The translations under genes were made by a program, and so were the position numbers. A model generated the notes under the pieces. The model did not search any database. It worked only from the letters and a program-made list of their open reading frames with translations, and had not been told where the DNA came from. DNA of 63,843 nt, counting the filler, from Vermamoeba vermiformis (lineage: Eukaryota), in NCBI GenBank assembly GCA_045837725.1. It is 8 parts of 8 records of this genome, joined end to end, with 100 filler letters (N's around TTAATTAATTAA, not from the genome) between each part and the next. Parts side by side here need not be neighbours in the genome. Positions count along the whole stretch, not along the records: positions 51,570 to 55,766 come from JBEWZL010000026.1; 7 more parts are not named here. The stretch is one strand, 5' to 3'. Below, one piece after another: positions 10,371 to 55,766 of this stretch (position 1 is its first letter; each line of letters begins with the position of its first letter).

Positions 10371-10584
10371 AGCTTGATCCGCGTGCTCATACGTATGTCC
10401 TATTAGGGACAAGATCCGAACCCATCGCATCGCCAACCGGTAACTATGTCATTAAGTTGAGGCCTGATGTGCATCACACTGCTTGCCAAGGCCATTAGCT
10501 CTGGTCTGCACCAGGACTGTGGCATGAAAGATCTGTCTCAGCGCGGGACTCACCGACCAACTTCTCGTCCACATTGGAAAAAGT

Positions 10585-11501: not shown

Positions 11502-11885
11502 CCTGAAGTTGTGCAAGAGTTTTTATGTTGTTGGATTGGTCCGCGGATTTAAGGAGAATATGAAGATCTTCTGCTATCGAAACAGGTATAATTTATATGT
11601 TCAAAACGAACTGAATTTCAACACGCCGTGTTGGAGAATTGTGACACAATTTCAACACGGCAAATCAAAAACGATCAAACAAACGGTTGTACAAGACCCA
11701 AATCAACACGGTATAATTTCAATAGACGAAAATCCATTTGTGTGAACTGTGAAAGTTGAAATCAGAAACGTGCAGTCTTCGCCGTGTTGAAAAAAGTTAA
11801 CTTTAAAAAACAATTTCAATCTTCTTCTATTGCAACACGGAACTTAAATTGTCATTACAACCGTACTCTCGATCAAACTCCGCTA

Positions 11886-13202: not shown

Positions 13203-13338
13203 ACATTTGTACTATGCAATAAACAAGTCTTTCACATCGATTATAATATCATTTAATTTACTACTTTAAAAATAAAATAAAACAATTTTTGCCTTTCATG
13301 ATCCGGATCATGGTTTTATCGGCAGCTTTTTTCAGCTT

Positions 13339-18837: not shown

Positions 18838-19259
18838 CGTGCAAACTCACAGTAACAATAGTGTGCTTCCTAGGAGTTAAATGTAATATTATAATCGACC
18901 AAGAAAATCTCGCGGCCTGGAGAGGAGAGGTTTTTTTCTTTTTTAACTTGCCAGTTTCGTTGATCATAGCAACAAACAACAAAATGTCATTGTAGACCAA
19001 CAATCTCACTTCATAGAATTAACTTTGTTAATTTAAATGCGCATTAAGAAATGCAGTGAAAACCGAAGAAGTGTTAATTAAAACAAGACGCGTCTTCGTT
19101 TGATCTACACCCTAACCCTCTGTTGACAAAATCAAGAAAAATTTTATTACGGAAGTAAGTAATTTTACTGATTTCTTCGCTGGACAATTCATTTGATCAG
19201 ATGAGAAAAAATATTTCGAAAAGGAGTAATTTTGGCACGCCGTTAATTTTCCTTTAATA

Positions 19260-19359: not shown

Positions 19360-19417
19360 GACTACTTTTATCTCCGTCACTGCACCGAGATTTGATCGCG
19401 TTTTGTTCGCGATCTTA

Positions 19418-19925
19418 AAGCCGCGCTGGAACGACGCTGAAAGTCGTTTGGCGCGTGTGTAATAACAATAAATTAACTATCTAAATAAACAAATCGACCC
19501 TTGTGGCCGATCTGTTGCGAATCCGAGATTCGCTACTGTCAATCCTCGAAATAACTCGCGCTGAACGGCCGTGTTGACCGTGGCGCGGCACTGTCTGCTG
19601 GTAATAAACAATAATAAATAAATGTAACGACCTTTGTGGTCGTTCTGTTGAATTACTGATGCGAAATAGCCCGTGCGCCATTTTCGCATCAGCTCTGATC
19701 CAAAATAGCTCGCGCTGGAACGGCTCTGACGCTGCGGCGCATTACTATCAGCTGTAATTACAACGTTGTAATACCAAAAAATAAATAAATCGACCCTTGT
19801 GGTCGATCTGTTAGCTAAAGTTTAAATCATGTCAAAACTGGCGCGTGCAATTTTGGAAATTCCAAATTATCCGCGCTGCAACGACGTTGGTGTCGCGGCA
19901 CGTAACTGCCAACTATAAAAAACAA
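19418..19925 (+). repeat. Array of ~135-160 bp structured repeats (ATCGACC-CTTGT-GGTCGAT hairpin plus CGCGC..GCGCG hairpin)
   Basis: Hairpin cores at ~19493, 19626 and 19790; companion (TAACT)CGCGCTG motifs at ~19422, 19552, 19707 and 19872. Confidence 0.85.
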
Positions 19926-20617
19926 TAAATCAACGCTCAATCGTCCGTTTTAGTTGACCTATTATGTTAACGATGACTTACCTCCTCGATCCGATCCAAT
20001 CAGCTGACGTCTTTTTAACTCTAGCGCTAAATTGAGCCTATTAGCAACAAATTAATTAATACCAATGAATTCAATCGTCAATTGACTGCGAGTAACGAGA
20101 ATCTCGTTAATCTCGCGGATTTAAGAATTGATCGGCGTTCGAATCTGACCTCGAACGCAACCAAAAATCAAATCGTTATTAAATCCTTTATTAGTACGTA
20201 CCTTGAATAATCTGAGAGCCATTAATTTGCCAAGATTCTTCAATGATCCGTCATTCCTAGTCGACGGATCGGCGCGACGATTTCTTGCTTTCTCCACCAC
20301 CAAGAATTTTGGCAATAATTTCGCGCGTTGTTTCTCGGCGGTCTGAAGCCAAAATAATAAATAAAAATTAATTGAGAGGTCTGGATCAAAATTTAAAGAT
20401 CCAGGGGCCCGTTGGCTCCCTCGGATCCCCGCGCTATTTATCGCTTACCTTGTCGCATTAACAAAATAATTAATATAGCCATATTAGCTCATTGTTTGAG
20501 CTATTGTTTCGCATTATCGCGAAATTGAACAGTGTTCGTTCGAGACAGTACTGTTCAATTTCGTTCCATTTTTTGCCATTAAATTCGGGGCGCCAAATTT
20601 TCCGGTTTTCCAGTCAT

Positions 20618-21543
20618 CAGGCGCCCCCCAGTGCTCCCCTAACCCTAAAATTTCGTGTCCGGTCTCTTCCCTCGCGTAAGTGAAGTCTTCCAGGACTGTC
20701 CCAGTGTACAAGCCATGGAAAACTAAAATAATTAATTAGTACACCATCAAATACAATTAAATTTACTTGCGTAGGTGAACATATAAAAGGATCGGAGCAA
20801 AAGTTCCGCGAGTACTTTGGGGATCTGGGTTGAATGTGCTATTTTGCCAGATCCCATTATCGTAGAAGAACTTCATTGTGCTCTTCACGTTCATGTCTCT
20901 GGATTCAGCTGTTAACACGTTAGTTAAATCGTGCTTTAACCGTAGCAGGAACTTACGATCTTTTTCTCGGCGCAACCGGCACCATTCTTGCACATCAACG
21001 ACAGTTTCACCAAGTCGGCGGCGCTTTGGTTGGCGCTCGTTGTCTGCCTGATCACTGCCACGCTTTCGGCGTGGGCGCTTTGGTGCATCTGTCAATTTAT
21101 TACTTACTAACATCGGCATTAATAAACTAACCAATACATACCACTACCCATTACTAGCTCCTCCTCATACAAGTTATCTTCAGTCGCAATACCTTCGTTG
21201 ACACTTAATTCTCTGGATTCAACTGCCAAAACTTAGCACAGAGTTTTAATTCGGTTTGGGCAACTTACCTTCATGTGACGATGATTTGTCAGTGCTAAAA
21301 CGATCTCGGTAAGTAATGGTGCTAATATTAACGTGTTTACTTACCTTTTAATCTGATCAGATTCACCGCTATCTTCATTTGAGGCGACACTTGCTCTGTA
21401 TTCAACGAATAAATAAAAAAAAGCAATAAAGAGCATTACTTACAATTCAATTCTCTCTCCATCGCTCGTAAAACTGGATGAACACTTAGCAACGACAAAA
21501 ATAATATCTAAATTAACCGAAATAAAAATAAAATGCATACCAT
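20618..21543 (-). CDS. Cluster gene D: hypothetical protein, acidic N-terminus and basic NLS-like patches
   Basis: ATG 21543-21541 is followed directly by an intron. Short exons splice in frame (MCSSSFTSDG..) into ORF 20763-21134 (PKRPRRKR, PKRRRL). Confidence 0.6.
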
Positions 21544-21868
21544 AATTCCGAGTCTATTGTGCGATTGTTATCTGTAATTAATAGCAATTATTAATGTTAT
21601 TGCCAAAGCTGCGCTAGATTTGATTTTTTGTAATGCAATAAAAATGTCACAAACAGCACAAAAAAGATTATTAAAACACTTACTTCTTTTATTATGAGCC
21701 ATTACAATAACTAACGGTCCGTGGTCACTTATTTGAAGTGATTGTTGCAATAAGTCAGGTTTTTTTCTGATCAAAAAAGTTCGCGTGTCGAGAACATCAC
21801 GCTATTGAAGGCCCACCACCACATTCCCACCTGCGAACTAATTTGCAGGCCCTTCAATGACGTTCAGG

Positions 21869-24800
21869 CTACTTGCCAAAGTATTGGCGATACTTCGATA
21901 CCCAAATCCCTTCATCCACGGGCAAGATCGGAGCGCGCCTTCCGGCTTGAGAGAATAACTGTGTGTCCAGCATATCTTCGATCTTCATGCCGTGGTACTT
22001 TATAGTAGCCTCGGGATTGGACTTGGTCAGGTGAAAGATGCAAACCGTGCGTAGTTCTGTCTTGTTCTTGCACTTCTGTACCAGCGGCGTTTGCTTGATT
22101 ACGTAGTCGATAATCTGACAACTCATTAGTAACGAAATGAGGTGAAATTGAACACCCACCTTAATTTTTGCTTCTAAGTCCAACATTGAGTCGCTTCTTA
22201 CTAGTATAGGCTGGCCTTCATCTCCGACAGTCATAATAGACGTAGGAGCAGCAAGCGTTGAAATGCGGACAAACTTGAAGATTCTAACGTCCGTGTCATT
22301 TTTGGGTGGTTTTCCCCAAAATGAATCGTTCGAGATGAGCGGGAACAACTTCAAACCAAGCTTCGCCAATAACTGCTCGATCTTCTTCTTCAAACCTCCG
22401 ACAGTGACAACAGCAGCAGCGGTGTTCTTGTTTGTCAAGTACTGAACGGTTTGAACTGCTTTTGTTTTTCCCACCTTAATGTTGTCGTTAAGCTGGGCTA
22501 TTACTTTCTTTTGCGCGAGTCGCCAGTGGTTGAAGTACTCGAGAGTAATCGGATAACGTTTGAAGCTGCGAGTGGCATCAGAAGGAAAGGCACTTTCACA
22601 CACACTCTCAAACGCGACAGTATCTCTAATTTTTACCTGTTGCAATAATTCGATTAATATTCATGCAAGTCGTGTGATAATACTTACAGTGCAGCCGGGG
22701 TGGCGAGTGTCGAACAAAGAGCGAAGCGCCTCACGTCCTCGACGCAAAGCATCGATAAATTGTTGCTTTTGTGTGGGACTACGGAAGCTGCCAGCGGTAC
22801 ATAGTGCAGCTAATAGCCCATTTACGAGATTGGCTGCAATAGTACCGCAAATCGACTTGTCTCGGGGAGTAACAAAGCCATCTTGAGGACGAAGACAAAG
22901 TCTAATTCTTGCACTAATGTCCATCATTTGTTCCTTATCTTTGACGTGTTGTGGGAACAGGCTGTGGAGAAATTTCGGAGGCAATGCAAGAATCAGGTCG
23001 TCTCCAGCCTGCAAGTCAGCAAGATCGGCCTCTTCAGCTTCACGGGCAGCGTCGTCAAGTGGTAACAGGCATTTAACTTGGTCGAAGTTGGAAGTAAATT
23101 CCACCAAGTCAGGCATGAAGTGTAGGCGACCATAAGTGAAGACGCTTTCTTTCAGTTTGTACCGGTTGAATAACTTTGGATGCGCTAATTGCAAGACCGC
23201 ACCGCTCCAGATAAATGTCAAGCAATCTTGAAGCAAAAAGGCGGCACGTAGCAAGTCGTCATTGTAATCCAGAGCGTCCAAATGGTGTGCTGATAATTTG
23301 TTAGTGTAAGACCTTAAATTGTGTTGTTGTATGCACCTTGGACGACATGATCCAAAAGGAGGTAGAAATACGTTCCAATGCTGTCGGTGAACTTCCGTGG
23401 GAATAAACACATCGTCTCGGTGAGCACAGTCTGAAGTGGGCTGCAGCGCATCATTTCTAACGGTATTAAGCCGCATTGATACAGAGCTTTCAACATATTG
23501 AATAGCTCAGTCAGCGTTTCCCCAAGCCTAGCCATTTCATGATACGCGTCAAGCAGTTGTTGCATAGTCGGATTTTGTAGAGTGATTTCAAGACGCGGTC
23601 CGTATGCCTTCTGAGGCATGATGGTTGAATAGTATTTTTCCGCTCGCTTCAACTCCTTTCGAGAATTAACGTCATTGATCTCTTCTTTAAGTCTAAGCAC
23701 ATTCATTAGGATACAATTAACAATAAATTATAATAATCAAACTTACCGAGAATGAAGTTTATCGGAGACTCTAACATCCGCTCCGATAAGTTGTTTGACT
23801 TTCTCAACCGGGAATGCTAGGACCGCATGATAAGAGTTCGAGAACGGAATTTGGTGTCGGAAATCCTCACTTCCTTTGTGATAAGCTTTGACACGCGCCA
23901 ACAACAAATGTTGTTTTGAGTACTCGATCATAGTACTGGTGCACGTGCCAATTCCAAAGTTGGGATATTCCGTGATTCTGCAGCAAGAGTAAGTTGAAAT
24001 TCGCTTAAGATTAACTACGCTTACTTAGGTTTTAAGTAGTCTTCGTCAAACTTGTTGCAACGAGCATGCTCAAAGATTGTTGTGTTGCGAGTCATTAGAC
24101 CTTTTAATGGCGAGTTGTGCATGTCAGCAAGAAGCGAGGTGAAGTTTCTGGTAAAGAACATTGTAACGTTGCTATCGTCCCCGCATCTGTACACAAAAGA
24201 ATTAGGACAAATGTCACGTGTCATAATGTCAATTCCTGACACGTGTCAAGAATTCTCAGATCACTTACTCTAAATCCAACCCAATATCTTGCATGAACAT
24301 CACTCTATTCCCTGGAGTGTGGTAGTAGACTTTGTCCATATCAAATAGATCGTTCAGCTTGTCGCTTAATTTGCTGATGTCATCGGCAGATGTTACTGGA
24401 TCTTTGCGGCCAAAGTGCTGGATGACAAATACTGGCTTGAATCTGTAAGCACGATTAGTATTTAATTAAATAATGGTGAAAAACCTTACTTGGGTTCTTT
24501 TTCGACAAGTTTTTTAATTCGGCGCTGAATGTGCCGAGTAGTTTCGGGTAAAATTCTTGTCGTTTCCCCTGGCCTTCTTTCTTCAGAGACTGCTACGAAG
24601 GGTAATGCGACTGGTGTGGTTCTGCCTTGTTCGGGAGCGTCTACAACACCTAATGGGAACAGTTAACAAGTTGAATTCAACGCTAAGTTTCCGTACCTTG
24701 ATATGCGCATTTCTCAAAAAACATTGTGATTGCTTCAACTGACCTTTCCCAAGGACAGTCCGGAAACACCGCAAATACGGGAATATTCCCGTCAACAAAT

Positions 24801-26109
24801 CTTGGCAATTAACATTAGTAAGTATCAGAATATGACTTCGAAAACTTACCCTATACCAATGCTGGGACAAGTGTGCAATGATTTGCCTTTGTAACGCATC
24901 TTGCAAGACTTTAAAAGGACATTGTGGTTCGGGCGAATTGACATTTCCCAAGAGCCACGAATAACCTTAAGGGTCTCACTGACGAAGCCGGTGAAGTCGA
25001 TATCCAAGCGAAAGCTTATTCTTGTATCTTTGGCTTCGGTGAAGTAGTAGTTGGGTCCATAGTAAGTGGTCGAAGTCAGCCAGTCAATGCTTTTGAAGTC
25101 ATCATCAAAATCTTCTTCTTCTTGAATAATTCTAGCACCTTCGATTAGGTGCTGCGTGAACAAATTCGTTTTCAAAGCCCCAACAGCCTGCGCATGACGA
25201 ATCTCGTCAAGCAAATTGACGTCGTAGACTGTGCGACCGTCATCGTCTTTTAAGTGATGTTCCCTAAGAAGTACTTCATTAATGACATGTACGACACGAT
25301 AACATTTACTTACTGGTCTAATTTTACCAGAAGCTGCATCTTTTCTTTTGTTGTCAGCGCATGGTAGTCTTTCCAGTTTGCGAGAATCGCTGCTGCACCA
25401 TCTCGTCGTAGCAACCGAAGCAACGAATAGTACTCGTCTGAAAGGGTTGCCGGGTCAACAGAAACTTCTTCTGAAGATGTCTCGAGTGGTGGCACGGGAT
25501 CGGCGCAAGCTGTTATAACATAAGTACCGTATTTAGCATTTTTTAACGAAAACCTTACCATCAGAATTGTACGAAATAGGTGACGAAGGAGGGGAACAAT
25601 CCGAAGACGAATAAGACCGCGGAGAAGATAATGGAGAAGGGGAACGAGACCTTGGAGATCGTGGAGATGGTGGGGATCGCGGAGAAGATAGTGGAGATCG
25701 CGGAGAAGACGGCGGAGACGGAGATCGTGGACGAGGACATGAACGTGAGGACAAAGGCGAGGGAGGTGTTCTAGGAGCCTTCCTTGAACCTAACTAATAG
25801 TTAAATCCAATGCGTCAGAAAAATAAAACAATAGTGCTTACGCTGGGACTTCGGCGTTACAAGCCAATCATTTACGTCCACTGAAGAGCCCAAAGACTCC
25901 TCATAGTTGGCGAGGTCTTCGTCAGTGGCTAGTTGCGTGGCTTCTTGGGTGAATTCTGAAAACGAGTCACCGGGGAAGTTATTCTCCTTTGAGTCAAGAT
26001 TGAAAGCAGAATGCAAAAGCTTATCAAATCTTTTTGTTGGAGAAAGAGCTTCTGTTTTTTTTATAAGTCAGTGTCCAGCGAAGCATTTATATATAAATGA
26101 ACTTACCAT
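21869..26109 (-). CDS. Cluster gene B: large multi-exon protein of unknown function
   Basis: Exons collinear with the homologue at 57941-61278: DIDFTGFVSETL, EYPNFG, KAYH, MPQKAYGPRLEITLQNP, YQCGLIPLEMMRCSP. SPR-rich N-terminus. ATG 26109-26107 followed by an intron. Confidence 0.8.
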
Positions 26110-26176
26110 CGATCGAGGAGTTGAGAAATTCGTTGTTGGTAATATCGCGAAGGCTAATGGAAGTCTACAAAATTGG

Positions 26177-28628
26177 TTAATGCAACCAATCAGGAAATTC
26201 ATCACTGTGTGCCTTAATATATCTAAATATGCGATTTGTAGATTCTAAATCAGGAAACACTCTCGTCAAGAACGAGAACGGTAAATCAGTAAATATTAAT
26301 TTCCTTTCGGTGCAGCAGATTTCGTAAAACTTTAGGATACGAAATTTCCATTTGCGAAAGAATTCTCGTCGGGCTGGAGAAGCGCTGGAAGGGCCTGTGT
26401 CTTTCCCGTCAAAGTCGTCGCTCATAGCAGCCGCCAACTTGGTCACATTGATTTTGCCCAGGATTTTAAACAACTTGTCGTTGACTTCGATCTCCACCGT
26501 CCTTAGGGCCATATTCGGTTTCTCCTCCATAATTTCGGTACGAAAGCCTCCACAGAGGGTGCTAACAATCCCACCAAGGTAGAATAGTTTCAACTTGGTG
26601 ATTACGTGAAGCCCCAGCTGAGTTTGAAAAAGTACTGACATTCCGTCTAAGCCATCGGTTAAATGCTGCACCAACGTGTCTCTTGCAACCAAACTAAGAC
26701 TGAGGTGTGACGAATTGAAAAATTTGACAGCCGCAGAGTCAGCTCCTTCTTTGACACCAGCCACATCAAGTTCCATCGAAGAGACGACCAAATCGTATGA
26801 AGACTGTGCAAATTCGCAATTACGGAGGCCAGAAAGTAGTTGACTGGAGGCACCTGCAGCAACAGGTAAGAAAGCTTCATAAAAAAGTTGCAAAACCCTT
26901 ACCGGATTCGTGTGTTATCAGGTCAGTTCCCGTCAGCTTTGGCTTGATCTTTACATCAGCCTTGACCTTATCTCGAAGAAGAAATTGCTTGTTTTCGTAA
27001 GTGAGTGCAACGATCATTGGGCGCTCGTTTGCATTTTCCACATCGATGCCAATCCCGTGAACGTGAAGTCTCTCCAGATGTTCTCGCAATGCAATGATAT
27101 ATCGATGAGTCCGCCTTGCAACAGAGTCGGGAGAGAGGTCTTTGTTGTCCAAAAACCGTTCTCTCCTTTCTAATTTTAGGAGTTGCTCTAAATAGAAATA
27201 CGTTAAAACCGGTATTACTATTTTTGGATTGTTTCGAAACTTACCTTCTCTTTTAGTTCTCTTGCTCTCGCGAGAGCTGTTTGACTTTGAACGATTGGAT
27301 TTTTTCTTTTTCTTCTTTTTTTTGTTCTTCGTATCTTTGGCATTGTTATCGCTCAAATCTGGCTCTGATTCTGGCTCATCTTCCTCGGAAAGGACGGTAC
27401 GGACATTTCTTGGAACATTCGCTTGTGTATCACTTAATAGCTCTGAAAATGGTCAGTGATAAATAAAGGAAGACTGCATAATAGCTTACCAGGGGAGGTT
27501 TCGTGATCGGCTGATTTTTCTTCTTCACTTCGATTTGTATTGTTTTGGTCTTCAAATGAGATGAATCAATAAATAAACATTAAGCCAAGGTAAATACTTA
27601 CTCTCACTGAGGACCGACTCTGGATCCGGCTCACTTTTTTCTCTTTCATTATCGTCAATTTCCTCTTTGTCCTCGTCCTCTTCGTCGTCCTCTTCGTCCT
27701 CCTCTTCGTCTTCTTCTTCTTCTTCCTCCTCCTCTTCATCTTTGTTTTGGTCGTAGTCTTCGTCGGTGGGAGGAGGGACATCTTCGGAGTTATCAATAAA
27801 GGCAATGTCGTCGGCATTTGGCTCTTCATGCTGGTTCAAATCATTCCAATCTTCTATCATGCCACGTACCGATGTAAGAGATATTTTCTTGGTTCCTTCT
27901 GGGACGTCATCTTCGACGTCACTTTCGGCTTTCTCACAAGAAAGTTGCGAGGTCTTCTCCTTGGTTTTTGTCTTTGTTTTCGTGACTATCACCTCTGTGG
28001 CCTCACCGTCTTCATCAGAGAGATCAATATCGCTAAAATCTGCATCGATGTCAGAAAACAAGAGTAAAATTTTGCTTAGGCAAATTCTAAGTACCTTTAG
28101 GTTCGTGAGTAGCGGCTCGCCGAGGCATAACTCTTGTTTTTGCACTCTAATATAGATGGGTTAGTCATATTTTGGCGCGAATTGGTCTGTCATTAGCTTA
28201 CCTCAGTACTGTTGTTCCGTGAGCCTTTGGCCAACTTTTTCGGCGGTGAATTATTCGATTCCAAAGCCTTCTGAGGCGACGACTTGTTGGATATTGACTT
28301 CTTGGGCGAGGACTTCTTGGGCGAGGACTTCTTGGGTGAGGACTTCTTGGGTGAGGACTTCTTGGGCGAGGACTTCTTGGGCGGGGGATTCTTCGAGGAT
28401 TTCTTTGGCGACTTCTTGGATGATAGGTCGCTTGAAGCAGATTTTTTTGACACTTTGGGGGATTGTTGCTTCGACCCAGAAGCAACAGTGCTGGAGCGCG
28501 AAGGAGACGTTCGAGAGCGAGTTGCGACACCGGGAAAGAACATGCCCTTAACAGCAGCCATACAATCCAAGCCCGACTAAGTGATTGAATTTAGTGCGAT
28601 ATGATTGCCAAAGCAAAAAACTTACCAT
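26177..28628 (-). CDS. Cluster gene A: protein with KKSSP repeats, acidic tract and conserved C-terminal domain
   Basis: ATG 28628-28626 then intron; KKSSP repeats; D/E tract. C-terminus KLKLFYLGG..RREFFRKWKFRI..DEFP matches 57062-57922 (KLKAYYVGG..KRDFFRQWKCRI..DEFP). Confidence 0.75.
28297..28381 (-). repeat. 15-bp coding tandem repeat encoding KKSSP
   Basis: GACTTCTTGGG(C/T)GAG repeated about 6 times on the plus strand. Confidence 0.9.
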
Positions 28629-28769
28629 TGTTGCAAGTACGAGAAGTTGATGAGTTACGTTTCGATTCTGAATAAGTAACAATTAACTTAAAATCGCGCT
28701 GGCTTTAAAAAGAGCGGGCTTACACACTATTGGTCAAATAAACATTTTTTTTCTATATCTTTTAAACAA

Positions 28770-31352
28770 TCACACACTAAACTTGATAAATTCCTCTCGC
28801 AGCAAATCAATGGCCTTCTCGTCTTCTATGTATATGACTTTGGCTCTTCTTGGTAGGACCCTGCGTTGAACTGGCGTCAATTGCTTTGAGGGTGGGATGA
28901 TAGCAGGATAGAAAAAGGGTCCAAAGCTGTCAAGCGGGAGGTCTCTGCGGGGTCGTTCATGAACTTGCGCTAACAATTCGTCGTTCCATTCATAAGAAAA
29001 TAGGCTTGGAGGATAAACGTTTTGCGGAGTAATAGCTCGCGGATGGAAGCGAAACCTGCGTAAGAAAATAAGTATCTTTGCGCAAAAACTTTGAGAGTTA
29101 ACTTACGGGCGATGAGCTAAGATATGCTTCATGATACTGATGGTATTATCGATGCCGTATCCTCCTAGATATAGGCGTGGCCCCGTCGTGTTGAGAGAGA
29201 CATTGCGCGGATCCACCTCCTCGAAGAAATCAAGAGGAGATATAAATATATTGACCAGGCAGAGGTGACGTAATGCAAGCTGGTTTAAACCACGCAAGTC
29301 TACGTATACACCTGGACAGTGCGATTCAAGCTCTAGCAGGTGAAATTCGGCAGGAAAGTTTACACCACGCAAAGATATTTCCCAGGCCCTTGTTGATTTG
29401 TCTTCTCTGGGAATTGGCAGACGCAACCCAACCAATCGCGGAGAAGCTGCAAAAATCTTGTTGATCACGGCAACAGTTGTGGCTCCCATCGTGTTGTACA
29501 GATCAAGTTCTTGCCCAAGAGCAAGATGGAAGTGAAGAAAGCGCAGGTGCCTCCACTCGTGACTGGCAAATCCATACGACACTAATTGAGTTCTAATGTC
29601 GACGATAGCCAGGGCTTGAAGAGAAGCGACACAAGCCGGAAACATCTTTGCGGCAACAGGAGGATCAACATCCTCAAAGCGGAGTTCGAGCAATTGACCG
29701 AAACTGGGAAGTGTTAGTTTAACGTACCAGTAAAAATTAATTATTTACTTACAAGGCACTCGCAGAATTGTTCATTGACTCGCCTGTCGGATCCAAGCTC
29801 ACTCGGGTCAGGTAGCAACCACGACACGCTGTCGAATCAATAGGGTGGATCGCACCAAAGTCGGAAAGGCGAATGATACAATCTTCAACTTCTAAAACCG
29901 AATACACGTGGTTGTTAACGGTTTGGTAGACGTGCCTTGGATCGTTGACAATGTTGATGGCATTAACCGGCTTGGGCTTAGTTTTCGGTGGGATGGCACC
30001 TTCATTAAGCAGAATGTTAGAAAGATGTAAAATAAATTAAGGACTTCATACTTAATTGTATTGGCTTGCCAACAGGTTCCTTGTCAGGAACTGTTAGAAC
30101 TTCAAGTGTTTCGGGTTCACTGTCTTGGATCGGTGAAGCAACGTAAGTCGATGATTCCTGTACCACTAGATTAATCATGGTAAAAATAATTTTAAATTAC
30201 TTACCGGCATTTCTTGTGCCGGGCTGGAAATTGAGGATGGGCTGATAGGGCTACTAGGGCTGGAATGTGACGCCTGAGAATGATGGGGGCTGGCATGGAC
30301 TTCGAAGAGATCAATCGAATTTGAAACTTCTTCGCCCGCCGAGACAAAACTTTGCTTCTCTTGGGGTACTTCGACGCGAGCTTTCTTCGTGATGGTTTGT
30401 GCCAATTCCTCTCCCTTTCTCTTAGGCGGTGGTACGTAGGACATGAATACAGGAGGTCGCAATTCGAGTGCTGGAAGATGAAACGCCTCGTAGCCAAATC
30501 CGTTGATATTCGGCAGGAAGTCTACCTCGGTGAATTTATTGGCATCAGGAATTTCGGTCGTAGCGCCATCAGTGCCTAACAACATATTAGAACGCCGTAT
30601 TAAAATCGCTATTGTACTAGCCGTTACTTACCTTTACTTTCGAATTTGGTTTCCTTTGCTGTGTATTGCGAGAACAAAGGGACATCATAGCGACAATTTT
30701 CGGTTGAAATGACCGCCAAAAGGGATTCCAAGGACTTGGTGGAAGTCCAGTGACCGTAGTGGTAACGCATCGCACACCAGAGTTTTGCGTGCTCGGTGTG
30801 GGTCACGTCTCCGCCTTCCGCGCGACTGGCGCCCTTAGTCATGTTGGGAATGATTACGTTGTCTCGGGCTGACCGCAATATCTCGGGAAACGTGCGCATG
30901 AACTTGACGAATCTCTGCCAGGCGACGGATGCGAGGCTAATGCCGAGGTGTTGAGCTATGGCAGCGCTGTACGACTTATACCAGCGAGGGTACACCATTG
31001 TGCGCTCTGGACGGGGGGCTAGCATTCCGTGGAAGTCAAAAACAACGTAGTAGAAGAGGAAATCCGCTCGGCTGCTGAACATGAAGTATTCCAAGCTATC
31101 GTGGAGTTTCTGCACGTAAGCATTGAAATCTCCTCCAGGCACTGACCGGTTTCTAGCTAGTACAAGGAACTCTACAAAGGTCACGATGTTCTGTTTCACA
31201 TCCGGTGACTTTTTGTTATTCTGTAAATAATAAAGTATTAGTATATAGTTATAACGATTTAATATATAAATACACGAAATAATATTCGGGCTTATTACAT
31301 TCGTGTGCACAGTAATAGTAATAAATAAAATTTTTAAAACAGATTTTACCAT
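28770..31352 (-). CDS. Cluster gene C: hypothetical multi-exon protein, C-terminal part leucine-rich-repeat-like
   Basis: ATG 31352-31350, intron 31349-31221, then NNKKSPDVKQ.. ORFs 30624, 30175, 29103 and 28770 are linked by short introns. LxxLxL patterns in 29103-29693. Confidence 0.6.
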
Positions 31353-31708
31353 TTCAGATTTAATTGCAACAAGAAGGATATAATATATATTATATATACT
31401 ACGGTAATTCGTAGTATAGATAATATTACAAGCGGATTTAAGCTCTTTTGGAGACTCAAATCCGGATTTGCAAGTACGAGCAGCTTTTGGCCGCAAGGAA
31501 ATTACTAACGAAGTCTTGTGGACTCGCAAGCAATTAAAAAAATAGGTGCGGATCACTTGTGGTGACGCACGTTATTTTTAAATTGGAATACTTGCAACAG
31601 GAACGCGAGATTTTGCGCACATGTGACTTGAAATTCCCAACACGTGGTCGTCACGTGTCATGCCAAAAAAAGATCTTTTCCAAAACAGGAATTAAAGTCA
31701 AAACTTTG

Positions 31709-32005
31709 ACAGAACGACCACCACCGGTCGATTTATTTATTTATTGTTAATGTAGTCAACTGATAGTAACGCGCCGCGGCATCAAAGCCGCTCCAGCGCG
31801 AGTTATTTCGGATTCAGCCGATGCGTGAAGTTCGCATGCGTCAGCATGCATTTAAGCTCAACAGCGCGACCACAAGGGTCTTATTTGCATTGATTATACA
31901 GCCGACAGTAACGCGCCACGGTCGCCAGCGCCGTTCAGCGCGAGTTATTTGGATTGAAGCTGATGCGACTTTAGATGACGCATCAGTTCTACTCAAAGGG
32001 TCAAT
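31709..32005 (-). repeat. Inverted copy of the structured repeat array at 19418-19925
   Basis: CGACCACAAGGGTC (31867) and CAGCGCGAGTTATTT (31794, 31936) are reverse complements of the left-array motifs. Confidence 0.85.
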
Positions 32006-32237
32006 TTATATACCAGCATAATGGATCAACTGTGAATTTTGGTAAGTGCACTAGATAATTGTTTGATCCAGGATTTGGATTTGAACGAATAAATTAATTT
32101 AAATAAATTAAACGTTAATACAGACAATAACTAACGATTTTATTAGGTTTTGCATGGAAATAGATCACGATCCCGACTGTTCGCGCGCGCAATTCTGTAA
32201 TTCGGTAATAAATAAATAAATTTTAGTAACTGGCACA

Positions 32238-32623
32238 GTATTTTTTAGGAGATCGTCTCCGCGCTGGAGACGACCTTTACGGACTTGGTTTTTTTAGGAG
32301 ATCGTCTCCACGCTGGAGACGACCTTTACAGACTTGGTTTTTTTTCGCAGATCGTCTCCACGCTGGAGACGACCTTTACGGACTTCGGTTTTTTTTGGAG
32401 ATCGTCTCCACGCTGGAGACGACCTTTACAAACTTAGTTTTTTTCGCAGATCGTCTCCGTGCTGGAGACGACCTTTACGGACTTGGTTTTTTTAGGAGAT
32501 CGTCTCCGCGCTGGAGACGACCTTTACGAACTTAGTATTTTTTAGGAGATCGTCTCCGCGCTGGAGACGACCCTTACAGACTTAGTATTTTTCACCGATC
32601 GTCTCTGCGCTGGAGACGACCCC
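32238..32623. repeat. Minisatellite, 8 x ~50 bp, each with TCGTCTCC(A/G)-CGC-TGGAGACGA hairpin
   Basis: GATCGTCTC at ~32251, 32300, 32350, 32400, 32449, 32498, 32548 and 32597; units near-identical. Confidence 0.95.
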
Positions 32624-32796
32624 TGGGTACATTGGGCTTTATTGCAGGTTGTGTTGGATGTGAGTGTGGGTTTGGGTACGGGATTACCTAAGCAAAATTT
32701 TGCTTAAGTAAAATTCTACCCGGACTTTTGTTTATTTCTGTAACTTTTTAAGGCTAGCCCTATATGGCCAGGCCCTTTTACATATATGAATTGAAG

Positions 32797-33060
32797 ACCA
32801 TCCGAAGTTCGGATGCCCATGTGGAAGAATATCAGCTATGAAAGTTACATAGCTGCTTTTTGACCATCCGAAGTTCGGATGGCTGTGGGAGATCCATGGC
32901 TAAAATGCAAAGCGGTTCACACCATCCGAATTTCGGATGCCTGTAACAATCTTGGCAATGGATTTTCATGGCTATTTTACACCATCCGAATTTCGGATGC
33001 CCTGACAATCTTAGCTATCAGGTTTTCATAGCTGCTTTTTGACCATCCAAAGTTCGGATG
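32797..33060. repeat. Five copies of the 17-bp palindrome CATCCGAAnTTCGGATG at ~60-bp spacing
   Basis: Copies at ~32799, 32865, 32923, 32983 and 33044 (last has one mismatch); spacers are diverged but related. Confidence 0.92.
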
Positions 33061-33114
33061 CTTTGACTGAGTACAAACTTCTACTAAATCATTTATTTTA
33101 CGTCATACAAGCAG

Positions 33115-33767
33115 GGACTCTTCACCCCTCAACCTTTAACCTTAACCCCAAAGGTATATTAATTGGCGACAAAATCTTCCTTGCCGATCTGACACTTTCA
33201 GACCCGAAAAATTCCGATAATACGATTAAAATCCATCCAGGAAGCACCATTAAAACAAGAATAGGGCGGGTAGATACAGACAACTTAATCGTATATGGAA
33301 TTGTCTCGTCTAATCTCGGAAAAAAGCTGTCACTGTTCGTCAATTCTTCAGATCACCCAAAAGACCAATTTCCCTACGCTGTGGATGTTGACTCAGTTGT
33401 AGAAGTTCGCGAAAATGCCACGTGGGATGCTGCTGCTTCTGACACTTGGTTAGAATCCTTACAAAAAGAGAGCAGTCAGAGTTCCAATCTGCACCATGGT
33501 GGATCCTCGCATCACACAACATCCCGACACACCATATCAGGACTTAGTGCACATGAAATAACACAGTTAGTGCAGGCAATTGTGACGCCCATCATGTCAG
33601 ATTTTGCGAAGCAATTCCGCGCTGTCATCGCCGAAATTCACGAAAAGGATGAAAACCACCAAAAAATGATCTTGGAAGAATTTAAATCATTGTGGGCTCA
33701 AAATTCAAAAATGATGGTAGATTTGTTAGCACTGGCAACGGAACGGAATCGAACGAACGATAAATAG
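33115..33767 (+). CDS. Hypothetical protein, terminal exon (upstream exons probably near 32154 and 32648)
   Basis: Long open frame after a CAG acceptor at 33114, helical C-terminus, AATAAA at ~33849; 5' structure uncertain. Confidence 0.5.
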
Positions 33768-34011
33768 GATTTATTTGTGTATTTTGTGAAGAAGATATTT
33801 CCGAGAGATTTCCTTGTAGCGACTATCGTCGCACCCTTGTATTTTATTAAATAAATCTACCCTTTCAACCAGCGAACACAGTCCTCAGTTTGGGTCATCA
33901 ACTCAACCCAGCTAAATCAAAATCTTAATATAACAATTTATCGTAAATAAATAATCTTTACTCGATCAATACATTGACTAGTAAATTACACGTTTTTGTC
34001 TATGTCTTTCC

Positions 34012-38300: not shown

Positions 38301-41036
38301 AACACTACGTGTCACAGAGCTTGACTGTTACTTACTTATGATGAATGACATAATTGAACATATTGAAAAAACAACAGATGCAAATCTGCACATCAAAGCA
38401 GTCGATTTGCGCGCTTATCTTGGTGTTAGAATTGCACAACAATTATCGCCAGGTCATTCTGTTGATGACTCTTGGGCCTCCTTTTTGCATTCACGCGCCA
38501 TGTGGGGCAACAGGTGGATTGCTAAAACAATGCTAAAAGATGAATTCAAGTTTATACACCGGAACAAAAAGTAAGTTCGTTGTTCACTCACTGTAATGGT
38601 TCTTACCTTTGGTCTTAGGTATGATGTGTACTTTGTTTGGGCAGCTCTGAATCAAACCTACTCAGAAATATGGGTGCCATTCAGCCACCTTGCTTTAGAT
38701 GATAAAGCAAATGCTTGGAAAGGAAGGTCAATTTACAAGATTTACAGATTACGCAAGCCATTCCCTTGGGCAATGTTAGAATATGTCATTATTGATGAAA
38801 GTGGATGGATGTCTGGCTTCATTCCTCGATATGGACTGTTTGCTACCATAACAGACAAGTTCAAGAAATGGCGAGAGTTATATCACGCCTTCAAAACAGG
38901 TCAACTTTCGCAAAGACCTCTACCATTTAAAACAATGTTTCCACGAGCATCAAAGACAAATTTCGATTTGGAAAAAGCCGTCAGTTTTTTATTGTCAAGA
39001 CTCCCTGACAAACAAAGGCACGTTTATGACTTTATTAGAGAACCCACAAATTATGAAGAATGGAACAATCTGACAACTCGAAACTTATCACACTATCATG
39101 TATTTTGTGACAGAGAGTTTTCCTCACTATGGCAGCACCTGCAAAAGCACAATATTGGATACACTGTTGGCATTATTGGAACATCACACCCTAACCTGTT
39201 TCAAAACAACCTTGCTCATTGTTTACAGCCAGGACAATGGCGCAGCTTAACAAACGACTCAGATATCATCATGTCATTCTATGACCCTCAAGGCAAGACC
39301 TGTCACTGGGCTAGTAATCGAGGAACAGCAGCCTCAATTTCTGAAAAAGTAATTGATGGAAACAAAAAGAAAAAGCTTGCATACTCTGCTCCCCACTTGG
39401 TGCAACAATATCGGACATACTTCAGTTCTGTGGATAAGCATAACTCCAAAGCCAAGAAGTTTAAGTGGCCCTACCGGATTCGAAAAGTAACAGAGCGCTT
39501 AGTATTTGCAGATTGGGAGCGCTCTGCTCAAGTTCAGGCAGAAACACTCTTCAAAAGACTCACCAACAGTGATATTCCTGCCAAGAAATTTCTTGCCAAT
39601 TTAGCGCGCTCCCTGGTAGAGGAATTCCAATCAAAAAGGAAACGAAACTACACAATAGAAGCGTTAGATCTTGTGCGCGCCAGTGGAAAGCATAATCCAT
39701 ACACCCACACCTGTGCGTACGAATTTGGCAACTCCAAGCGTTGTTTCTTTTGTCAAACTCAAAAGATATCTTCTTCTACACTGTAAGTATGTGTAGGTGT
39801 ACTTTTGTCAAACTAATTAATTGCCTTAGCTACAAGTGCATTCAGTGCAAAGTTGCCTTACACAAGAAGTGCTGGAAGAAATTCAAAGGTGTAAATCTTT
39901 AAGTTTTGTACAAGGAGTTATCAGTTAACTATTGTGTGAATAGCATGTAACACGTTGTGGTGTAGCATGAGCACGAAAGTGCCTGAGGCGGCTTTGACGC
40001 AAAAAACCTCGTGTGTAGGCACTGAGAGTTTGGGGATAGTCAGCTTGCTTCAGATTTATTCACATAATCACCTGCTAGGCTAACTGTTAGTAGCATGTAA
40101 CACGTTGTGGTGTAGCATGAGCACGAAAGTGCCTGAGGCAGCTTTGACGCAAAAAACCTCGTGTGTAGGCACTGAGAGTTTGGGGATAGTCAGTTTGCTT
40201 CAGATTTACTCAACAGACGATAGCCTGGGCTACTATTGAGCTTATTTATGAGAAATGGGAGCAGCCATGTCCAAATTCTGGTACGTCTACCGTGTAGACT
40301 TCCAGTTGGTTAAGGAATATATTCAATAATACTTAACTATGCAATATTTTTTGCTCGGAAACTGGATCTAACAGATTTTTTTACTAATCGTGTTAGGTTG
40401 TGGCTTCGATTACATTTGGTATAGGTGCCGCATTTGCGATATTAATGGCGATTAATATTTCTCGGAATATTGCGCCACGCTATCAAAGAACTGCTTGGGC
40501 GAGTTACGTAGCGATCTGCTACATCTTTTTGACTGATTATTTCCACGGCAAAACGCACGGAATTTTGCGCCCCGACGACTATATCGTACGTATATAATAT
40601 GATTTGGTATGAATGCGTGCTAATGATGATTTTTTAGGGCTTAATCATTGTCGAAATTTTCTTCCACATCGGAGTTACTGCAGCAGCATTCATTTTGATC
40701 TATTATCAGCGAAAAGTAATTAAAGCTGCTTGGGTGAAGCGTCAGAGTACGTACTTTCGTTTCTTACTAAATTTTTGTCCACGGTGGATCCGCACGTTGC
40801 AACTTCTGGATCTACCTATCTAATGATTTAAAGTCATATTTAATAGCATATACTAACAATAGCCGACATCTTCTTAATATTTTAGCATTTGCGAGTGTTT
40901 CAATTGCACATGTACTAATGGATTTGTTTCACGAACCATAGAGCGCGATGTCGTTGGCACATCCGTCACACTTTCCACTTCTGCGGGTGGAAATCAATCT
41001 TCGAGCACTAGGCGTGATGAAGAAGCCGAAAAATAA
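35378..41036 (+). CDS. Polytopic His-rich membrane protein, paralogue A (first exon not located; intron 36355-40396 holds a transposon gene)
   Basis: Exon-by-exon similarity to 41333-44619: EAAVTGVGLAFL, WFPHAQLH, EMTFHW, DYFHGKTH, FFHIG. Confidence 0.8.
36965..39902 (+). CDS. USP deubiquitinase - piggyBac-type transposase fusion protein (copy 2)
   Basis: USP motifs: VVNLGATCYISSSLQ, HRDLQEFL, LVLHLKRF, IIVHQGTAKQGHY..WLELND, AYILVY. Introns 37326-37377, 37440-37488, ~37759-37801, 38097-38143, 38571-38618 and 39783-39829 keep one frame. Transposase motifs: DLRAYLG, LALDDKANAWKGR, VFCDREFSS, YRTYFSSVDKHN, and CFFC..CIQCKVALHKKC; TAA at 39900-39902. Confidence 0.9.
39941..40212 (+). repeat. 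Two ~122-bp direct repeats (period 150) downstream of the transposase
   Basis: 39941-40062 and 40091-40212 are nearly identical (about three mismatches seen). Confidence 0.95.
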
Positions 41037-51569: not shown

Positions 51570-54500
51570 CTATCTATAACATTAATATGAGTGTCATGCG
51601 TTGACAAAATAAAATTAATTTCATTGTAACTTACCGCTGAGGCTCGTGTAACGGCAAAGTCAGGTGCGTAGCGCGGGATCCAAACGAACAGAAATTGCTA
51701 AAGTAGTTATTGTTAGTTGTAATAGTGTTAAAAATCGCTTATACTTACCTAATAGTGCTTCAATTTTGCCTTCGCTAATCACTGAACGATCAATTATACG
51801 ATCAGATCGCGCCGTTGTTAGCTTAACCCTACAATCGTTAATTAGTTGGGTTAATATGAGTCAGCATACATATTCAATAAACAATCAATTTAATAGCTCT
51901 GTGACTTACTTCTGATCCAATCATTGTATTTCGACACGCTCTAGATCTGTTCGAGGCACGCACCTTTGTCTCGATCTACATTTATCACATCGCCGCATAT
52001 AACCCTATTAAATTCATAAGTCGATTATACATATTAATTACAATAATTAGGTGTGGTTACCTGGAGTACCAGCGCGAACGAACGGCAGTTTTCTCGTGAC
52101 AGATCTACTGGCATCCAACGTCGGGTGCAACTCGTACCGCGCCAACAAGCCACGAGTGGTCACTTGAACAAATTAATTACTATTATTATTATGATAATAA
52201 TAATTGAATTAATACTTACACCGTATTGAGCCAGTGAAAGCATCCGAATCCGAATCTAAAATTTAAATTGAGTTAAAGCTGTACGCACAATTTGACTAGG
52301 TTATTGCTCAATTTTAAATAATAAAATATTTGACTGTATAAATAAATAATAACACTTACCGTGCGAGAAAATCTTTTCCGATATTACGTGAACAACTCGT
52401 ACTTCTGAAACAAGCACCTTAAATCAAGCTTAGTATAATTACTTATCAATAAATAACAAATTTCAAACTTACCTTTCAGTTGTGTTCGTTTTGCTGAGAT
52501 CGTGCATTTTTAATGACCGAATCCGCCGGCAACTAAACTCGTTCGCGTTCTACATAATCAAATGTTAGCTCCACTATACTTAATTAAATATTGCTTGCTA
52601 ACAACTTACTCTTGTGTAGCAGTGCTAGAAATTTAGCGACGACCAGTGCAACACGATCCGTTAAGTCCGTACACGCTCTCATTCTGAGTATAATTATCAA
52701 TTAGTAACCCTATATTATAAAAGTAAAATTCATTAAGATATAATTACCTTTGGCGCGATCAATGCGATTACTTAAAATTTTTACGGATCGAGATGTGCTG
52801 TCTTCGATCCGGTTCCGAGCAATAACAAACGTATTTTTAGTAATTCTAATCACGTAAGTCATTAATATTGACCGTATACTATTGATTTTGATAACTTACC
52901 TTGTTGTTTGGTGTAGTCTTTGCCTTCAACGACCGCGCAAAGTGTTCACGGATCGCGGATCCGATTTGCCATACAGACTCCTTGCAACTTAAAAATAATT
53001 AATAAAAATAATGTAATATAAATATATTTCTGTACGCTTACTCTTAGCGCGATCGATACGCGCTATGTACATTTTAACGGATCTGGATGTTGCTCGATGC
53101 GCGTCTGTTCTTTTAAATTAACCATTCACCTATTTTATTAATATAACGTATTAGTATTTAGAATATAAAATAATAATATTAACTTACCTCTGAGATTGTT
53201 AGCGATCTGACCGATATTTCCTCGCGGGTCAGATCGCGCCAAAGATCCGTGAGCGAAGTTCTATAATTAAAGTTAGCGTTAAATATTATATTAAATATAG
53301 CATTAAACGATATATACTTACCTTCAGTTGCAGTAGAGCCAGGCTTTTGAGTTTTATCGGATCCGATCTCGCTGATTCGATCCGCGCCAAGTACTAACTA
53401 TGAAAGGGCTTGATATGTTCTGTTAAATAAGGCGTTAGTACGTTGCATCTACTATTGAATTAGCGACTTACCGCGATATGCAGCGTTACTATTGCCGAGT
53501 AATAACGCGCGCACCATACTAGATCTCGCGGATCCGCTAAGTCCGTGAAGACTGTTATTCTATCGAAATTAAATGAATCAGTACAATATAAAAATGATAT
53601 ACAATGCGTTATACTTACCTTTTTCGCGATAGATGCGCTCTATTAACGTGGTACGGATCGAGATCGTTCGATCCGTGTAGTCAGCTCCGTGAGCAAATCT
53701 GGGGCAGACAACCGTTAGATATTCATAATGTATATATTTATAACGCATTATACTTACCGTTGGCGCACTCGATGCCTTTGATCAAAAGTTGAATCCGCTG
53801 CTGGATCGCGGATTCGTACTCGTTAATGATTTCTTCACGGGTCGTGTTAACCCTTCCTGATTTACACTGTATTAGAACACATCGTAATAAACGTTTTTAC
53901 AAGCTTACCATTAAAAACTAAGGAGTGTTGCAGAATTACCGTCGCGGCATCCATTTGACTCGGATCGCGAAAACTTGAAGGTAATCGGTCACTGCTATTA
54001 ACTAAACGTTAGAAATAAATATAAATATATATATTTATCGATTTACTTACCTTTAAAACTATTTGCTTAAAGACTAAGCAATTTTAACGGATCGCTACGT
54101 GAACGGATCGTGAACTTGCGCGGGCCGTAAAAACATTCGCAAGCCAATTAGAACGTATCTGTAATTATAAAACGTTAATAATACTGCATTAATATCGATA
54201 TATATTAATCATCTTAATAACTTACCCTTCTATATAAATTTTTTATCGCGTGAAGTTCGCGATCGAGATCCGTTCTGTACTTTTGTTAAGACCTAAATAA
54301 ACAATGTTAGACCGTTTAGTATTTATTAATTAACTATATTAAATCACTTACCGGTCAAGAAAACTTGGCCTGACACGCATCGAGTTTTCGATCGACCCAT
54401 CCGGTCTACGTCCGCGCCTTCTTCATTCTAACTTGTAAATTTACGATAAATAAAATAAATAAACGATAATATAAATAACTATTTCACTTTGGTTCGAGCG

Positions 54501-55766
54501 GAAAGCTCGATCCGAATAATTCAATTAATTTTTTTACTTGTTGAATTTTAAATATCGAAAAGACGCATTCATTGCGTCATATTCATTATTATTATTAATA
54601 TATTATTACTTACAGATTATTTCGATGCGTCCAACGCATCTGATCGCGCCATCAAGTTGCCGAGTCAATGAGCGAGCACTGAGAAGACTGTCCAACGCAG
54701 GACACGAACGGAAAGCAACAGGTTATCATAAAACGACCATTGGTGGTCGAGATCTCGCGGTACGAAAGTCAATAAAACTTTCGATCGCGCTCGTGTTTTT
54801 GCAATCGTTTCTGTAATTAAAAATAAATATTAGAACGATGTATTAAATATAATTAAATAGTATTTTGTTAAAAATCCGGATAAATTCGAGCACTAAGCTC
54901 TAATCCGGATCTTTAATTTTTAAATTGAAAATCAATAATTGAATTAACGATTTCTATGTATTATAAATGGTGGAAGGATGATAGGAAAATTATTACCTTT
55001 TAAGAGCTCGGTCGCTGCTCCGAGATTTAGACGCGAGAAATTGCTGAGTCGAAAGCCGCGCTGCAACGACGCTGAATATCGTTGTGCGCGTGTTGACTGT
55101 CACTAATATATCTAATTAATACAATAATTCGACCCTTGTGATCGAACTATTGCAAATCCAAAATCGCATCGGCGATCGTCGAGAATAACTCGCGCTGAAA
55201 CGGCTCTGGTACCGTGGCGCGTAACTGTCAGCTGTAAATGATCAATTAATAATCAATAATTCGACCCTTGTGGTCGATCTCTCGGCGAACTATTTTTAGT
55301 GACAAGTTCGTATCCGGAAAAGGACTTGTCAGATCGGAATTAATGACTCCAAGCTGTAATAAAAGTGATTAATAATACTATTAACATTATTTAATGCGTA
55401 AATTTGCGAGAATTTCGCTGATCTCGCGGTTTTGAATCAGATGCGAAATCGGAATCCGACTTAGACCCGCGATTAAAAATGAAATAATCGTTTCTAAATA
55501 ATACTTACGTGTTATAATCGCCATATTTACTGTCAATTTCTTCAGATCTGACCGTTTTGAGTGGTCAGATCTACGCGGCGTTATTTCGCTATCGCGAATT
55601 TTCTGATTTTTTCTGGTGGTAGTACGCGTTAGTACTTGCCAGGAACTATTGTTTTTAATTAAAATTAACCAAAATAAATGCTTATTTAAAAAGTTTTTGA
55701 TCCGGGGCGTTCTGATCCCCGCCAGAATAATTCCGTTTTAGGACTTACCTCGCCGCGCTATCTCGA
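51570..55766 (-). ncRNA. Candidate multi-exon spliced non-coding RNA locus / ~145-bp intron-exon unit array
   Basis: About 20 regularly spaced minus-strand GTAAG-type donors (51632-54351), each with an AT-rich ~55-nt intron and a GATC-rich, often hairpin-forming exon. Exons 53322-53419 and 54226-54292 have stops in all three frames. Confidence 0.55.
55052..55282 (+). repeat. Third copy of the structured repeat array (homologous to 19418-19925)
   Basis: GCCGCGCTGCAACGACGCTGAA, TTCGACCCTTGTG(A/G)TCGA twice, ATAACTCGCGCTG. Confidence 0.88.

Follow-up and report, generated by a model that had tools for sequence, protein, structure and literature searches.

What kind of locus carries two dozen well-kept introns on one strand and no reading frame in the exons between them? 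The question is raised by a contig of Vermamoeba vermiformis (JBEWZL010000026.1; positions 51570–55766, 4,197 bp), one of eight contigs joined in the window analysed here, by which we mean the whole stretch of 63,843 bp (seven joins, each N44-TTAATTAATTAA-N44). Between its N-linker boundaries this contig was found to carry 24 splice donors on a single strand, most of them belonging to an array in which a short exon recurs every 143 bp. At a rough probability of one half, we read the contig as a fragment of an intron-dense, spliced non-coding transcription unit resembling a long non-coding RNA (lncRNA) gene, the function of which is inferred.

Splice sites, exon layout and reading frames

All 24 GT donors on the minus strand of the contig read GTAA. 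G was found at position +5 (GTAAG) in 21 of them and T at +6 in 20, 19 match GTAAGT exactly, and G precedes the donor at position −1 in 18 of the 24. These signals are confined almost entirely to the minus strand, with 19 GTAAGT versus one on the plus strand and 14 GGTAAGT versus none. The GTAAGT density of the contig is 4.5 per kb; in the remaining seven contigs, neither strand exceeds 1.4 per kb.

Exons were numbered from the 5′ end on the minus strand, exon 1 being the first, and the array comprises exons 5–24 with 19 internal introns (51635–54431, minus strand). The first intron bases of its 20 donors lie at 51634, 51748, 51909, 52060, 52219, 52359, 52472, 52609, 52747, 52899, 53041, 53187, 53321, 53471, 53618, 53757, 53908, 54050, 54225, and 54351 on the minus strand. 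Successive donors are spaced 143 ± 15 bp apart (19 intervals). Four further minus-strand donors are located upstream of the array, at 54613, 54996, 55508, and 55748. The first-pass annotation, made without database searches, had named 20 minus-strand donors, and every one of them was recovered within 1–3 nt of where it had been placed.

Acceptors were taken as the first plausible AG beyond a branch-like motif, so several may be off by a few nucleotides. With this model, exons 5–9 were assigned to 54431–54352, 54292–54226, 54158–54051, 53994–53909, and 53856–53758; exons 10–14 to 53698–53619, 53559–53472, 53419–53322, 53260–53188, and 53129–53042; exons 15–19 to 52987–52900, 52845–52748, 52683–52610, 52549–52473, and 52404–52360; and exons 20–24 to 52255–52220, 52162–52061, 52004–51910, 51828–51749, and 51697–51635 (all on the minus strand). 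Array exons thus range from 36 to 108 nt, a wider span than the 65–100 nt claimed at first. Array introns measure 51–104 nt, 17 of the 20 falling between 51 and 68 nt, and the pooled GC content is 0.47 for exons versus 0.23 for introns. The earlier description of a period of about 145 bp with clean splice sites and AT-rich introns is therefore borne out. In 23 of the 24 introns, a YTRAY branch-like motif, which is common by chance in AT-rich DNA, was present 8–45 nt ahead of the AG taken as acceptor; the strict form CTAAC/CTAAT was present in 14 of the 24. The large coding gene of contig 19360–34011, described below, has introns mostly of 44–56 nt, and since the array introns are near that length they appear to be ordinary introns for this genome.

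Upstream of the array, three longer 5′ introns were found (54432–54613, intron 4, 182 nt; 54811–54996; and 55354–55508, minus strand), which fold beyond shuffled sequences (minimum free energy (MFE) z −2.6 to −3.3). Small GC-rich hairpins are set in their AT-rich sequence, e.g., CGAGC..GCTCG, GACGCA..TGCGTC, and ATCCGGAT, the latter twice, and the introns showed no match to an Rfam family. Tandem Repeats Finder reported only small AT-rich repeats on the contig and no 145-bp array. The CpG observed/expected ratio was 1.98 in the contig versus 1.0–1.33 in the remaining seven contigs, and 1.2–2.8 in its exons.

Every coding signal tested was lacking, and the array exons are non-coding. The spliced model of the full contig (2,305 nt) contains 33, 39, and 33 stops by frame and stays open for 82 codons at most. 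Over all frames, the 20 array exons (1,625 nt) hold 74 stops versus 89 ± 7 in shuffled sequences. TAA, TAG, and TGA each occur 5–14 times in each frame, and thus no single stop reassignment opens a frame. Period-3 power was 0.41 in the array exons, compared with 0.73 in shuffles and 2.4–4.5 in four coding open reading frames (ORFs) of the window. The absence of a reading frame, claimed at the outset, was thus upheld by stops near chance level and by the missing period-3 signal; stops in all frames had been reported for two exons, and six of the 20 array exons proved to be closed in all three.

Exon relatedness, half-sites and folding

The units had been regarded as differing in sequence, with some blocks in common. 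The block claimed to be shared by exons 11 and 17 is present, and the relationship was found to go further than that. By Smith-Waterman alignment, 20 of 210 exon pairs scored above the 99th percentile of shuffled exons. The strongest group consists of exons 10 (53619–53698), 14 (53042–53129), and 16 (52748–52845; all minus strand), which mutually score 39–40 (exon 10, 40) versus a threshold of 22 at that percentile, and the 3′ halves of which align column by column to the donor. A profile built from these three exons (nhmmer) weakly matched exon 9 (E 0.006) and showed no match outside the array in the 63.8-kb window. Exon bodies show about 37% pairwise identity in a multiple alignment, and blastn of the contig against itself gave no exon-to-exon match; the homology of the module emerged from Smith-Waterman, MAFFT and the profile alone.

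The related exons also share a short motif. CGGATC and GATCCG, which are mutual reverse complements, occur 19 times in the array exons versus 1.12 ± 1.1 in dinucleotide shuffles, and GATC occurs 36 times versus 9.5 ± 2.8 expected. All 19 half-sites are confined to the array core, exons 6–17 (52610–54292, minus strand), where the motif is present in 11 of the 12 exons. GATCCG lies 41–43 nt ahead of the donor in exons 7, 10, 12, 14, and 16. The two orientations are near-equal in number (9 and 10), and the complete palindrome CGGATCCG is found three times. Since the exons are related and share these half-sites, the array appears to be an old tandem duplication of one exon-plus-intron module, its units being diverged copies of that module and not unrelated sequences.

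Folding was assessed per exon against 200 dinucleotide shuffles for 22 exons. The mean MFE z was −0.41 for the sense and −0.79 for the antisense strand, and only exons 2, 9, 10, and 13 showed z below −1.8. The short introns gave a mean z of −0.25, and the spliced core of exons 6–17 (1,047 nt) gave −2.6 in sense versus −2.9 in antisense. The four inverted repeats named earlier, in exons 13, 10, 16, and 9, are all present. They include the hairpins ACGGATCGA/TCGATCCGT in exon 10 (z −2.5) and CGGATCGA/TCGATCCG in exon 16, and an 11-bp inverted repeat GCGATCTGACC/GGTCAGATCGC in exon 13 (53188–53260, minus strand; z −2.2), the stem core of which is the same as that of exon 2. In exon 14, both arms of the hairpin of its homologs 10 and 16 are altered without compensation. 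The description of the units as hairpin exons thus holds for a few of them and fails as a generality.

The strongest fold lies outside the array, in exon 2 (55509–55612, minus strand), where the inverted repeat AGATCTGACC/GGTCAGATCT gave an MFE z of −5.3. A paralogous stretch at 20202–20339 has a hairpin at the same place, and the two aligned sequences, this being the single paralog, differ by two double changes, T-A to C-G and A-T to T-A, which were read directly off the alignment. RNAalifold on the MAFFT alignment missed this stem because the 3′ arms were offset by one column. These double changes are the sole hint of maintained pairing.

Exon stems of 8–11 bp are too short for a precursor microRNA (miRNA). 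Rfam searches gave no match at gathering score in the whole window, and for the contig (E up to 1) only mcrA at a chance-level E of 0.2. A host gene for small nucleolar RNAs (snoRNAs) or miRNAs, or a mirtron cluster, was rejected on the basis of the missing Rfam match, the intron length of 51–68 nt in 17 of the 20, and the short stems.

Explanations weighed against expression and paralogy

The splice signals of the contig are far better kept than its exon bodies, and thus a spliced non-coding transcript is the best reading. Neutral decay would erase signals of 6–8 nt as fast as it would exon bodies, which argues that splicing of the unit has been under selection for most of its history. The suggestion of a spliced structured RNA made in the first-pass annotation therefore survives as far as the intron-dense, frameless layout and the well-kept splice sites are concerned, and is not supported with regard to general hairpins and expression.

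Several observations weigh against a spliced non-coding unit. Three RNA sequencing (RNA-seq) runs carrying the same species label (two samples from one study) were mapped to the contig alone, with about 13 million records read per run, i.e., 46–48% of each. In each run 22–24 reads were placed, all of them partial, with no read at least 99% alike and no splice joints in this contig-only mapping, which included no positive-control region; strain difference or expression limited to a tissue or stage is not separable from silence in these runs. Transcription and splicing at this locus, as checked by the mapping, were thus not seen. Moreover, the exons fold weakly on the whole and to a like degree on either strand, giving no strand-specific sign of structure at the RNA level, and half-sites in both orientations suit a palindrome in DNA as much as a hairpin in RNA. 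Finally, the contig is open on both sides, beginning within an exon and stopping 4 nt past an acceptor. Since both ends fall within the unit, no promoter, poly(A) site or flanking ORF comes into view.

The reads that were placed are 90–95% alike and fall on an upstream repeat and some exon blocks; they cluster at 54728–54759 and 55057–55093, with a few in the array exons. They stem from other copies of a family, and it is the transcription of that family, not of this contig, that they show. Two copies of the repeat, a unit of about 130–160 bp, are present at 55052–55283 (minus strand) as a hairpin CAGCTGACAGT..GCGCCACGG..CAGCGCGAGTTATT..GACCACAAGGGTCG with an AT-rich spacer (blastn and alignment). 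The unit recurs at 19417–19812 and, inverted, at 31708–32009 (blastn, 74–76% identity, E 1e-14 to 1e-34). Across these units CAGCTG, GCGCCACGG..CCGTT..CAGCGCGAGTTATT, and a GACCACAAGGGTC hairpin are followed by an AT-rich spacer of about 40 nt. As RNA reads of other unit copies (90–95% alike) cross the spacer, it is not spliced out in those copies. No relatives of the unit were found in metagenome_contigs or in viral_contigs (0 in each).

Further paralogy was found in the 5′ region of the contig. There, a segment that runs from the end of exon 1 through exon 2 and its flanking introns, 1 and 2 (55368–55756, minus strand), is colinear with 20051–20456 on the same strand, with a local alignment score of 117 versus a null of 29 ± 4 (maximum 45), and additional paralogy was detected with 19365–19646 (about 75% identity). 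The stretch at 20051–20456 is non-coding, split by GT-AG introns, and lies, in the same orientation, just past the stop codon of a large coding gene with many exons (about 31571 to 20763, minus strand; chained ORF of about 8.2 kb with a strong period-3 signal). The order is thus large orphan gene, spliced non-coding exons, repeat units and then exon array, the array being seen in contig 51570–55766 only; contig 19360–34011 terminates exactly where it would start. Because its 5′ part is paralogous to the 20051–20456 stretch, the contig under study is a second copy of this type of locus and belongs to a small multi-copy family.

Membership of such a family also makes room for a silent relic, i.e., the dead duplicate, or a divergent haplotig, of a member that does function, with splice sites clean through youth and an inert array. 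The RNA-seq runs are consistent with this, having given no read from the locus and no joints while related copies are transcribed, and so is the context of a 4.2-kb unplaced contig among contigs rich in repeats and piggyBac-type transposase remnants. However, not one of the 24 donors is damaged, and with branch sites and GC contrast also kept there is no sign of decay; the paralogous stretch is about 75% identical, so the copy is not obviously young; and absence from two samples does not establish silence. Even were this copy dead, its parent gene would share the unusual architecture. We consider a relic rather unlikely.

The colinearity of 55368–55756 with a stretch that has GT-AG introns and directly follows, in the same orientation, the stop of the large gene would also be expected if the exons formed a multi-intron 3′ or 5′ untranslated region (UTR) of an off-contig coding gene paralogous to that at 20763–31571. 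More than 20 UTR exons would be extraordinary, though, and introns far past a stop normally trigger nonsense-mediated decay. An independent non-coding gene downstream fits equally well. This explanation is unlikely, and somewhat more so than a relic.

A further explanation is set at the DNA level, in which GC-rich palindrome blocks and AT-rich spacers bind protein or phase nucleosomes and the splice-like signals are incidental. Since the stems derive from palindromic half-sites, the fold signal is strand-symmetric and structure in RNA is not separable from a palindrome in DNA. The equal fold signal on both strands, the strand-symmetric half-sites with three complete palindromes and the regular 143-bp period would all fit such an element. 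Against this, 19 GTAAGT on one strand versus one on the other, with branch motifs and AG at the right distances, would be unexpected. A period of 143 bp is shorter than a nucleosome core particle plus any linker, so that one nucleosome per unit, as in the phased array proposed earlier, is improbable. We therefore give a DNA-level element very little weight.

A coding gene or recent pseudogene, reached through another exon chain or genetic code, is the least probable explanation and can practically be set aside: permissive chaining, in which any AG 40–220 nt beyond a strong donor was allowed, did give a stop-free path of 1,520 nt on the minus strand versus 518 nt on the plus strand, but this path keeps introns, takes odd acceptors and lies within the range of 40 shuffled controls (1,124–2,123 nt) below their mean of 1,614 nt, so that the search for an alternative chain with a long ORF found none, and the frames are closed as described above without any period-3 signal.

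Neighbouring features, known systems and significance

The large gene bracketed by the inverted repeat-unit copies (20763–31571) is a lineage-restricted orphan coding gene. Its predicted product contains acidic and lysine-rich low-complexity stretches. A Pfam scan of 14 of its ORF pieces left 11 without a match, and the other three matched only below the curated cut-off, to Glyco_transf_43, Herpes_pp85, and DUF5363 (E 0.018–0.05). A word-based homolog search found none. Among 1.8 billion representatives, HMMER returned only 11 relatives (E up to 1e-3; 29–61% identity), mostly fragments the size of a single exon and none with an informative Pfam domain. For the last coding exon, 174 pattern matches were obtained in metagenome_contigs, none of which was confirmed. 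Leads to bacterial Rep proteins in the ESM Atlas (0.85 or less) were weak and were not trusted, and a Helitron, considered because of the GC hairpins and these leads, was dropped as no helicase or Helitron family was found in the 14 scanned ORF pieces.

On the other side of this gene, about seven tandem copies of a repeat of about 57 bp were observed at 32230–32620 (plus strand), every copy having an inverted repeat (GGAGACG/CGTCTCC) and a run of T that ends in AG. A plus-strand GTAAGT donor at 32042 precedes them, an arrangement that suggests a divergent non-coding transcript on that side. Further along, at 32790–33060 (plus strand), the palindrome CATCCGAAGTTCGGATG, variants included, occurs six times at intervals within repeats of about 60–70 bp.

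Elsewhere in the window, piggyBac-type transposase domains (DDE_Tnp_1_7) were detected with partial profile cover in ORFs at 1770–2972 (minus strand, E 3e-13) and 38596–39786 (plus strand, E 4e-11). An AMP deaminase gene is present at 13300–17319 (minus strand) in contig 10371–19259, with ordinary short GTAAGT introns; its exon at 16822–17319 gave a Pfam E of 1e-55, and the nearest ESM Atlas clusters are from arthropods. With the piggyBac-type remnants in two contigs, this led us to read the source as an arthropod assembly that is fragmented and rich in repeats. No transfer RNA (tRNA) genes were found by ARAGORN. A likeness of GGATCGAA to the B box of tRNAs or short interspersed nuclear elements, noted by eye, was dropped since there is no A box at the proper distance and ARAGORN was negative.

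Several known systems share part of the architecture of the array. Like the exons of snoRNA host genes of the UHG/GAS5 type, those described here are many, short and poorly conserved, with well-kept splice sites, and in such genes it is splicing and not exon content that matters; however, host genes carry intronic snoRNAs, whereas the introns here are minimal and without an Rfam match. Mutually exclusive exon clusters of the Dscam type also consist of tandem short exons with short introns derived from exon duplication, but those exons are coding, equal in length and alignable. Such a cluster was rejected here, the exons being 36–108 nt long, frameless, without a period-3 signal and closed in six of 20. 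In NORAD and the A-repeat of Xist, reiterated motif units lie within single long exons, and the motifs are strand-specific protein sites. The likeness lies in reiterated short units of motif plus hairpin in a non-coding RNA, thought to be multivalent for protein; here, in contrast, each unit has its own exon, and the half-site is self-complementary and present in both orientations.

The closest architecture is that of Firre, to which the array is likened by analogy. The Firre repeat RRD overlaps seven of the 13 exons in human and 11 of the 23 in mouse, and it is the nuclear-retention and hnRNPU-binding domain of the RNA (PMC4820808). Both loci are, or would be, many-exon non-coding genes with one local repeat across many exons, represented here by the module in exons 10, 14, and 16 and by the motif in 11 of the 12 central exons. 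Firre is mammalian, however, the present host being an arthropod, and is unrelated in sequence, and the module here is about 85 nt versus 156 nt for RRD. The present array also differs in its minimal introns (51–68 nt), strict periodicity, far more diverged copies and self-complementary motif, and no expression of it was seen in the three runs. The aphid Ya genes are likewise a lineage-specific, multi-copy, spliced non-coding family of arthropods, but a match was rejected, since they are separate three-exon genes of 357–403 nt with 85–99% identity, arranged in tandem, and not one unit of more than 20 diverged exons (PMC7293609). A full-text literature search for similar arrays and for three motifs of the window found no described equivalent, which does not prove absence.

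If the contig is a fragment of a spliced non-coding unit, it would belong to an RNA polymerase II unit on the minus strand with at least 25 exons and at least 24 U2-type GT-AG introns and without a protein product. The array would have grown through tandem duplication of one module, with selection retaining the 5′ splice site, the branch site, the 3′ AG and the GC contrast between exons and introns while the exon bodies drifted almost to randomness. The locus would be, or would recently have been, transcribed, with splicing through intron definition. The mature RNA, more than 2.3 kb from this fragment, could be an lncRNA or a long non-coding tail of the unit of an upstream gene, and may act as a multivalent scaffold or decoy, its reiterated motif/hairpin modules being displayed to a binding partner. 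Since the half-sites are mutually complementary and could pair, the RNA could form local and inter-module duplexes.

A more far-reaching version is put forward tentatively, and we hold it to be possible and not probable: a non-coding gene of at least 25 exons kept by selection, with an exon every 143 bp, would belong to a lineage-specific family coupled to a giant orphan gene, and its CGGAUC/GAUCCG modules would zip into duplexes or form a multivalent platform. The dense splicing, with an exon-junction complex every ~85 nt, might itself be functional.

The usual non-coding gene has few exons, and its splicing is weakly conserved; here, two dozen near-perfect sets of splice sites accompany near-random exon bodies. 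Were the locus silent, it would be an ordinary relic of such a family. The linkage to an orphan gene family with the same repeat units hints at a lineage-specific cassette of gene plus non-coding RNA that is possibly mobile or segmentally duplicated. If transcription is confirmed, the locus would show, in a clean natural setting, selection that bears on splicing or on short modules within exons and not on sequence at large, and it would give local-repeat lncRNAs of the Firre kind a counterpart among invertebrates.

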